A DNA stretch of 64,000 nucleotides from Escherichia coli (lineage in GTDB: Bacteria > Pseudomonadota > Gammaproteobacteria > Enterobacterales > Enterobacteriaceae). Positions 26,981 to 27,086 of this stretch are shown here, piece by piece (position 1 is the first letter of the stretch; every line of letters begins with the position of its first letter). The notes beneath the pieces are model-generated. The model worked only from the letters and a program-made list of their open reading frames with translations. It did not search any database and had not been told where the DNA came from. Position numbers and translations under genes: made by a program. The DNA is taken from the NCBI RefSeq assembly GCF_003334255.1, contig NZ_QOWU01000024.1; one strand, 5' to 3'.

Positions 26981-27010
26981 CGGGTGCTGCGGCACCCGAT
27001 TTTCTTCCCC
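26981..27010 (+). terminator. Hairpin plus T-tract in the ahpC-ahpF intergenic region (partial terminator/attenuator)
   Basis: Perfect 7-bp stem cgggtgc / gcacccg with loop tgcg at 26981-26998, followed by attttcttcccc. Confidence 0.5.
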
Positions 27011-27086
27011 GCACCATGATGCAAGCTGCATCCAGGTAGCCGCAGAGGCCGCTTGCATGATGATGTTTAAAGCCCAGGAGATAAAC

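Follow-up and report, generated by a model that had tools for sequence, protein, structure and literature searches.

A putative intrinsic terminator and an RNase III processing site in the ahpC-ahpF spacer of Escherichia coli

AhpC is decameric and among the most abundant Escherichia coli proteins, whereas far less is required of its reductase, AhpF. The two are encoded by consecutive cistrons, which raises the question of how an operon can deliver unequal doses of its products. We analyzed the ahpC-ahpF locus in a 64,000-nt stretch of E. coli DNA (hereafter the window, whose numbering is used unless MG1655 positions are given). The original prediction for this locus placed two RNA structures in the spacer between the genes, and both are present close to where it had located them: a short G+C-rich hairpin (hairpin 1), read as a partial terminator, and a longer imperfect hairpin (hairpin 2), read as a gate on ahpF translation.

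Organization of the ahpC-ahpF spacer

Comparison of the locus with the MG1655 annotation identifies this part of the window as E. coli K-12-like, and the match to ahpC provides the conversion used throughout (window position equals the MG1655, NC_000913.3, position minus 612666). The spacer between the two genes (26843-27086, 244 nt) is made up of three modules: an ERIC repeat, hairpin 1 and hairpin 2 (Table 1). A 246-nt query comprising the spacer together with bases 1 and 2 of the ahpF start codon (26843-27088) is 100% identical to many E. coli chromosomes, those of K-12 and related strains among them, but the part of the spacer that is constant in the species is only its 3' 116 nt (approximately 26973-27088), which contain both hairpins.

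Table 1. Features of the ahpC-ahpF locus, in window coordinates.
Feature	Position	Strand	Description and basis
ahpC coding sequence	26279-26842	+	187 aa, stop codon TAA at 26840-26842; MG1655 b0605, 638945-639508; open reading frame list
ERIC/IRU repeat	26843-26968	+	126-nt imperfect palindrome that occupies the 5' half of the spacer; context of the finding rather than part of it
Hairpin 1	26980-26999	+	8-bp stem with 6 G-C pairs, tetraloop UGCG; fold, covariation
U-rich tract UUUUCUUCCCC	27000-27010	+	Term-seq 3' ends at 27002 (two conditions) and 27004 (one condition)
Hairpin 2	27011-27066	+	5' arm 27011-27032, 3' arm 27045-27066, variable apex 27033-27044; fold, inverted repeat, literature
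Putative staggered RNase III double cut	27028-27029	+	pairs 27028-27049 (G-C) and 27029-27048 (C-G), flanked by mismatches
ATGATGATG in the 3' arm of hairpin 2	27057-27065	+	in frame with ahpF in Escherichia; open reading frame 27057-28652
ahpF Shine-Dalgarno AGGAG	27076-27080	+	6 nt 5' of the start codon, outside hairpins 1 and 2; read from sequence
ahpF coding sequence	27087-28652	+	521 aa, start codon ATG at 27087; MG1655 b0606, 639753-641318; open reading frame list

The first module has the properties of the ERIC/IRU family, being an imperfect palindrome of approximately 126 bp with terminal inverted arms (26842-26868 and 26942-26968) and a central inverted repeat, matching the primer sequences ERIC2 (1 mismatch) and ERIC1R (2 mismatches) and occurring dispersed in E. 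coli genomes, with a median of 8 places in each (approximately 8 detectable copies). It is polymorphic at this locus, where it may be full, reduced to a short palindromic remnant of approximately 52 nt, or absent, giving spacers of 244, 170 and 128 nt; the full K-12 form is found in 1763 of 5423 E. coli genomes and the remainder carry the 170- or 128-nt spacers. An ERIC element sits at the same position in Salmonella, Citrobacter, Raoultella and Superficieibacter, and REP-like palindromes take its place in Klebsiella and Enterobacter. G+C-rich palindromes of the REP/BIME type were seen at this site in two Klebsiella loci (L086 and L092), in E. hormaechei (L095) and in two further loci (L012 and L015). 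The stretch directly 3' of ahpC hence appears to be a hotspot for differing families of intergenic repeats.

Several further observations concern this region. Sub-threshold Rfam matches to the V_AS5 (Vibrio) and CssrA (Shigella) families cover the ERIC repeat on the minus strand (26797-26967), and these families may be built on ERIC-like repeats. The heptamer AUUUCCU at the ERIC terminus just after the ahpC stop codon (26843-26849) is complementary to the ahpF Shine-Dalgarno region (AGGAGAU, 27076-27082), and the two are paired in the minimum free energy and centroid folds of the K-12 spacer, a pairing that is possible only in ERIC-bearing strains. Upstream of ahpC, the dsbG-ahpC intergenic region contains an Rfam match to the STnc70 small RNA family (26041-26134, plus strand; 42.7 bits against a gathering score of 40 bits), at the end of which lies a Term-seq 3' end (MG1655 638796, window 26130; Adams et al. 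2021, PMC7815308).

A conserved hairpin at the 3' end of ahpC mRNA

Hairpin 1 (TCGGGTGC-TGCG-GCACCCGA, followed by the tail TTTTCTTCCCC) had been described as a perfect 7-bp G+C-rich stem with a T-rich tract. The perfect stem and the tract both stand, and the stem is 8 bp long rather than 7. On its own, the hairpin folds with -16.6 kcal/mol (z = -4.9), a stability that none of 200 shuffled sequences reached. It has the G+C-rich stem of 5-14 bp and the loop of 3-8 nt expected of an intrinsic terminator, a U-tract on the 3' side of the stem and, in published data, in vivo RNA 3' ends inside that tract. These ends come from the curated Term-seq list of Adams et al. 2021 (PMC7815308, Supplementary file 1), which reports 639668(+) in two conditions and 639670(+) in one. 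They convert to 27002 and 27004, with a matching flank (...GGCACCCGATT|T), and they supply the transcript 3' ends near 27000 that had been proposed as a check on the terminator, although Term-seq does not tell true termination at the 27002 end from exonuclease trimming after RNase III cleavage. The same list contains no 3' end at 63968x-63970x, which indicates that the end created by RNase III is not the stable 3' end. The TERMITe supplements contain no entry for ahpC.

The tract itself is weak. It reads as four U, C, UU and CCCC, so that UUUUCUUC offers six U in eight positions with an interruption, and it compares poorly with the runs of 6-8 T found in several relatives. A canonical strong terminator, with a 10-bp stem containing 8 G-C pairs followed by TTTTTAT, is present 3' of ahpF (28682-28707, plus strand) and contrasts with the weaker U-tract of hairpin 1.

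To follow hairpin 1 across the order, spacers were gathered from one genome per species and by exact-protein look-ups, and those of 28 Enterobacterales were aligned. The hairpin and a following T-run are present in all 28, including Pantoea, Erwinia, Providencia, Brenneria and Arsenophonus. Compensatory double changes were found at six of the eight base pairs, 95% of alignment cells are paired, as against 32-46% in slid controls, and none of 500 shuffles reached the observed covariation score. Examples are C-G in place of U-A in Klebsiella and Salmonella, and C-G or A-U in place of G-C in Erwinia and in Enterobacter sp. Ag1 (L014), whose lineage we infer to be Buttiauxella-like. In genera with spacers of 71-82 nt, hairpin 1, usually with 6-8 T, is the sole element between ahpC and the ahpF Shine-Dalgarno, and terminator-like hairpins also separate the two genes in Pseudomonas, Variovorax, Snodgrassella and others. 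Together, these results establish hairpin 1 as a conserved RNA structure of the intrinsic-terminator type at the mapped 3' end of ahpC mRNA. It is a putative intrinsic terminator and 3'-protective hairpin of that message, and processing could generate the same 3' end.

The idea that the terminator U-tract decayed in lineages that gained hairpin 2 was also considered. A crude count of the longest T-run appeared to favor it (P = 0.01), but that count included three mis-located hairpins, and a weighted T-tract score computed on 28 correctly registered hairpins revealed no difference (P = 0.68).

Hairpin 2 as an RNase III processing site

The second structure had been described as a 12-bp imperfect inverted repeat at 27015-27062, and its arms, catgatgcaagc (27015-27026) and gcttgcatgatg (27051-62), indeed pair at 11 of 12 positions, the exception being a G.G mismatch. 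The repeat extends further, to 21-nt arms (27012-27032 and 27045-27065) that are 81% complementary, and folds as one long interrupted hairpin (-23 kcal/mol, z = -2.3; 4 of 200 shuffles were as good) with approximately 17-19 bp over 22-26 nt per arm, corresponding to the roughly two helical turns of an RNase III substrate. Two mismatches, C27014.A27063 and G27018.G27059, are conserved. The Rfam 15 covariance models gave no match overlapping 26980-27086, even at E <= 10.

Published data demonstrate that this hairpin is cleaved. Searching for positions with coverage much higher in an rnc deletion than in the wild type among reads aligned to NC_000913.3, Gordon, Cameron and Pfleger (2017, mBio, PMC5371410) ranked an intergenic ahpC-ahpF site, 639695, second among their new sites, with a ratio of 900 (4 wild-type reads versus 3598 in the rnc deletion) in both replicates. 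This position converts to 27029 and falls within the upper stem of hairpin 2. In the same study, purified RNase III cleaved in vitro a T7 transcript that began at 26769 and extended into ahpF, so that the site is both rnc-dependent in vivo and recognized by the purified enzyme. The half-life of ahpC mRNA was approximately 14 min in the wild type and approximately 6 min in the rnc mutant, whereas ahpF stability was unchanged. In the authors' proposal, a protective hairpin remains 3' of ahpC after cleavage. The confirmed RNase III targets listed by Kim et al. 2013 (PMC4222554) likewise include ahpF, with a 7.7-fold increase in ahpF mRNA and a 3.3-fold increase in ahpC mRNA reported for an rnc14 mutant. 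The two studies are thus partly discordant with regard to ahpF, given its unchanged stability in one and the 7.7-fold rise in the other. The main text of Stead 2011 contains no reference to ahp. Taken together, hairpin 2 is an RNase III processing site that separates the ahpC and ahpF messages, and its cleavage stabilizes ahpC mRNA.

The exact cuts can be tentatively placed. According to the in vivo rule of Altuvia et al. 2018, the two positions between staggered RNase III cuts are paired, usually including a G-C pair, and the pairs G27028-C27049 and C27029-G27048 fit this rule. A double cut at these positions would give ahpF mRNA a new 5' end near 27050.

Because thousands of reads cross the downstream hairpin in the absence of RNase III, any termination at hairpin 1 must be leaky. 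This leakiness, the covarying hairpin with its T-run and the Term-seq ends in the tract, found across all three growth conditions, are in line with the original prediction of a partial terminator that keeps ahpF below ahpC. In a rival account, hairpin 1 does not terminate transcription in E. coli at all, and complete read-through is followed by RNase III cleavage and exonucleolytic chew-back, for which hairpin 1 would act solely as a block. Such an account would fit the strong dependence of the ahpC half-life on RNase III, the interrupted U-tract, the protective hairpin that Gordon et al. 2017 (PMC5371410) themselves propose and the position of the mapped end, which at 3-5 nt past the stem is nearer than the 7-9 nt typical of termination. 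We nonetheless regard it as unlikely, since hairpin 1 and its T-run have all the sequence features of an intrinsic terminator, occur alone and with longer T-runs in relatives devoid of hairpin 2, and include T residues after the stem in 28 of 28 species, which a pure exonuclease block would not need. Moreover, terminated RNA ends commonly lose a few nucleotides by trimming in vivo. We therefore retain the reading of hairpin 1 as a putative, leaky intrinsic terminator.

The distribution of hairpin 2 is narrower than that of hairpin 1. It is present in 5422 of 5426 E. coli genomes, always in a single copy, which rules out a dispersed repeat, and it was also found in E. albertii, Salmonella, Citrobacter, Klebsiella, Raoultella, Enterobacter, Leclercia and Superficieibacter. 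It is absent from Enterobacter spp. Ag1 and Ap-916 (L014 and L087, which would together form the Buttiauxella-like lineage noted above), Jejubacter, Mangrovibacter and all non-Enterobacteriaceae sampled, and in Enterobacterales without it the terminator directly adjoins the ribosome-binding site. Hairpin 2 therefore looks like an insertion of approximately 65 nt between terminator and Shine-Dalgarno in the Escherichia-Klebsiella-Enterobacter clade. One locus (L085, AP025685.1), whose AhpF is named as that of Salmonella enterica serovar Choleraesuis in one source, differs from the genuine Salmonella loci (L090 and L091) in that its spacer is 71 nt long and lacks hairpin 2; its name or record is probably mis-assigned.

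The geometry of hairpin 2 is the same in the predicted folds of all 13 species first examined. In an alignment of 18 Enterobacteriaceae sequences, including Salmonella, Klebsiella, Raoultella and Enterobacter, 92% of cells are paired (slid controls, 21-52%). All 18 retain the G.G mismatch, and 17 of them retain the C.A mismatch, the exception being E. albertii, which has a pair there. No compensatory substitution was found at any pair among these 18 sequences, so that the comparative data do not by themselves prove an RNA structure; that the duplex forms is proved by the published cleavage, on biochemical rather than comparative grounds. Identity reaches 86-92% in the arms, compared to 65% in the apical loop and 68-74% at synonymous third positions of the flanking genes, and this excess over synonymous positions without covariation points to purifying selection on the arms at the level of sequence. 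Neither hairpin, then, is a chance feature, given that hairpin 1 covaries and that the arms of hairpin 2 surpass synonymous positions.

The two hairpins differ markedly in this respect, since the arms of hairpin 2, with their G.G and C.A mismatches and the run AUGAUGAYGUUUU, are nearly invariant across the Enterobacteriaceae in the same genomes in which hairpin 1 covaries freely. Hairpin 2 might accordingly be more than a generic RNase III substrate and be recognized in a sequence-specific manner on top of its duplex, a conjecture to which we assign a rather low probability. Such recognition could take the form of a protein or small RNA tuning RNase III access in oxidative stress or, alternatively, the 3' arm could serve after cleavage as the ahpF 5' leader, for instance in controlling translation or decay. 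Sequence conservation of both arms without covariation is also what a protein-binding palindrome would present, and hairpin 2 could in principle act as DNA, either as the operator of a transcription factor or within an internal ahpF promoter. We find this extremely improbable: its half-sites are 24 nt apart, around a center that is variable and length-polymorphic, which is atypical of a dimeric operator; RNase III cleaves the RNA in vitro with no other factor; and the ahpC-ahpF spacer contains no consensus match to a sigma-70-like promoter, on which ground an internal ahpF promoter was rejected as a candidate.

As regards the proposed gate on ahpF translation initiation, hairpin 2 had been thought to end right at the ahpF ribosome-binding site. 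Its last pair is at 27066, with the Shine-Dalgarno 9 nt beyond and the AUG at 27087, so that the stem contains neither element and does not qualify as a Shine-Dalgarno-sequestering hairpin. Gating could still operate by direct occlusion, or through pairing of the pyrimidine tract at 27003-27010 with the Shine-Dalgarno until RNase III cuts. Partition-function calculations lend this some substance, with the probability of an unpaired Shine-Dalgarno rising in silico from 0.27 in the uncleaved Escherichia core, where CUUCC is its partner, to 0.80 after cleavage at 27050, and there is a precedent in adhE, where RNase III cleavage unmasks the ribosome-binding site (cited in Gordon et al. 2017, PMC5371410). 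The predicted probability of the CUUCC pairing itself, however, is only 0.3-0.4, and in 10 of 13 species, all with hairpin 2, the Shine-Dalgarno is unpaired or has other partners. Masking by the pyrimidine tract across hairpin 2, predicted for Escherichia only, is thus not conserved, and it cannot explain the conservation of hairpin 2. Furthermore, wild-type cells contain almost no uncleaved RNA (4 versus 3598 reads), which leaves little for a gate to act on. We consider a gate very unlikely. The role documented for hairpin 2 is that of an RNase III site, and we interpret it as a processing signal rather than a translational gate.

Other pairings around the ahpF start were examined and set aside. 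A kissing or alternative interaction between CUGCGGC in hairpin 1 (26987-26993) and GCCGCAG (27039-27045) is lost in one E. coli locus (L005) and in other genera and was treated as a chance match. ATGTTTA (27063-27069) and TAAACAT (27082-27088) form a perfect 7-nt AT-rich inverted repeat that brackets the ahpF Shine-Dalgarno and overlaps the start codon, but outside Escherichia the small hairpin it could form is not conserved.

The 3' arm of hairpin 2 also affects the annotation of ahpF. Gene callers often take the three tandem ATG codons starting at 27057 as the ahpF start, which yields a 531-aa product, and a database cluster with 12604 members has this protein as its representative. The frame of these codons relative to ahpF is not conserved outside Escherichia, and the 531-aa start probably reflects a systematic error in start-codon assignment. 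Elsewhere, in most genera, the tandem ATGs open a four-codon frame (MMMF and a stop) or an out-of-frame one. Small upstream open reading frames were considered as coding candidates, namely this MMMF frame (27057) and MMQAASR, starting at an ATG in the 5' arm (27016); a gcaag run lies at 27021-27025, in the region of the latter. Their length and frame vary between genera, and they are not conserved coding sequences.

Uncoupling of the two cistrons and its parallels

We consider it quite probable that the conserved 3' half of the spacer works as a two-step device uncoupling the cistrons of one OxyR-controlled operon, with ahpC message in excess of ahpF message. At its first step, hairpin 1 and the imperfect U-tract would stop some RNA polymerases after ahpC, giving an ahpC mRNA that would end in ...GGCACCCGAUUU, at the mapped 27002-27004. 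RNA that reads through carries hairpin 2, and the published data show that RNase III cuts it almost quantitatively in the upper stem around 27029. The upstream product would then be trimmed by 3' exonucleases as far as hairpin 1, leaving a monocistronic ahpC mRNA that is stable and has an identical 3' end, and such trimming would explain why the ahpC half-life drops from approximately 14 to approximately 6 min when RNase III is missing. The downstream product would be a separate ahpF mRNA with a 5'-monophosphate, a leader of approximately 37 nt and a free ribosome-binding site, and its fate would be independent of that of ahpC.

This arrangement is already in the literature. The site of Gordon et al. 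2017 (PMC5371410) is the same locus and the same structure, with 639695 falling at 27029 within hairpin 2, and the protective hairpin proposed there corresponds to hairpin 1, so that nothing essential differs. What is added here are the Term-seq end positions, the phylogenetic distribution, the covariation of hairpin 1 and the absence of covariation in hairpin 2.

Among known systems, the spacer is a typical case of a terminator-plus-RNase III architecture, as in rplL-rpoB and rpsO-pnp. In the intra-operon spacer of E. coli rplL-rpoB, a partial terminator (attenuator) precedes an RNase III site whose processing barely affects expression. At both loci, a leaky intrinsic terminator would reduce downstream dosage, and RNase III cuts a long hairpin close by; the genes are different, however, with no sequence relation, and at ahpC-ahpF RNase III doubles the half-life of ahpC mRNA. 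In E. coli rpsO-pnp, the rpsO terminator is followed by a pnp leader hairpin that RNase III cleaves, pnp has its own promoter and cleavage sets off an autoregulated decay of the downstream mRNA. Both Gordon et al. 2017 (PMC5371410) and Kim et al. 2013 (PMC4222554) name pnp as a known RNase III site. The ahpC-ahpF spacer shares with it the upstream terminator hairpin, the long RNase III-cut hairpin and the separation of message fates, but the effect measured here is that the upstream mRNA becomes more stable, and the search for an internal promoter found none. A third parallel is provided by the RNase III sites of the phage T7 early region (R1.1 and others), interrupted intercistronic hairpins that give rise to monocistronic mRNAs, in which mismatches shape cleavage and the stem protecting the 3' end is what remains of the cleaved hairpin, one half of it. 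The interrupted hairpin between cistrons, the internal mismatches and a 3' hairpin that protects the mRNA from exonucleases are common to both, whereas the stable end at ahpC-ahpF is formed by a separate upstream hairpin, hairpin 1.

The value of these results lies in confirmation and context, the mechanism having been published before. They portray the ahpC-ahpF spacer as a means by which one promoter may supply unequal doses of two products, with a leaky terminator and an RNase III cut that would yield a stable message for ahpC and a separate one for ahpF. The tandem ATG codons within hairpin 2, in turn, explain the 531-aa AhpF present in many databases, and the spacer as a whole offers a clean natural example for operon design and annotation.
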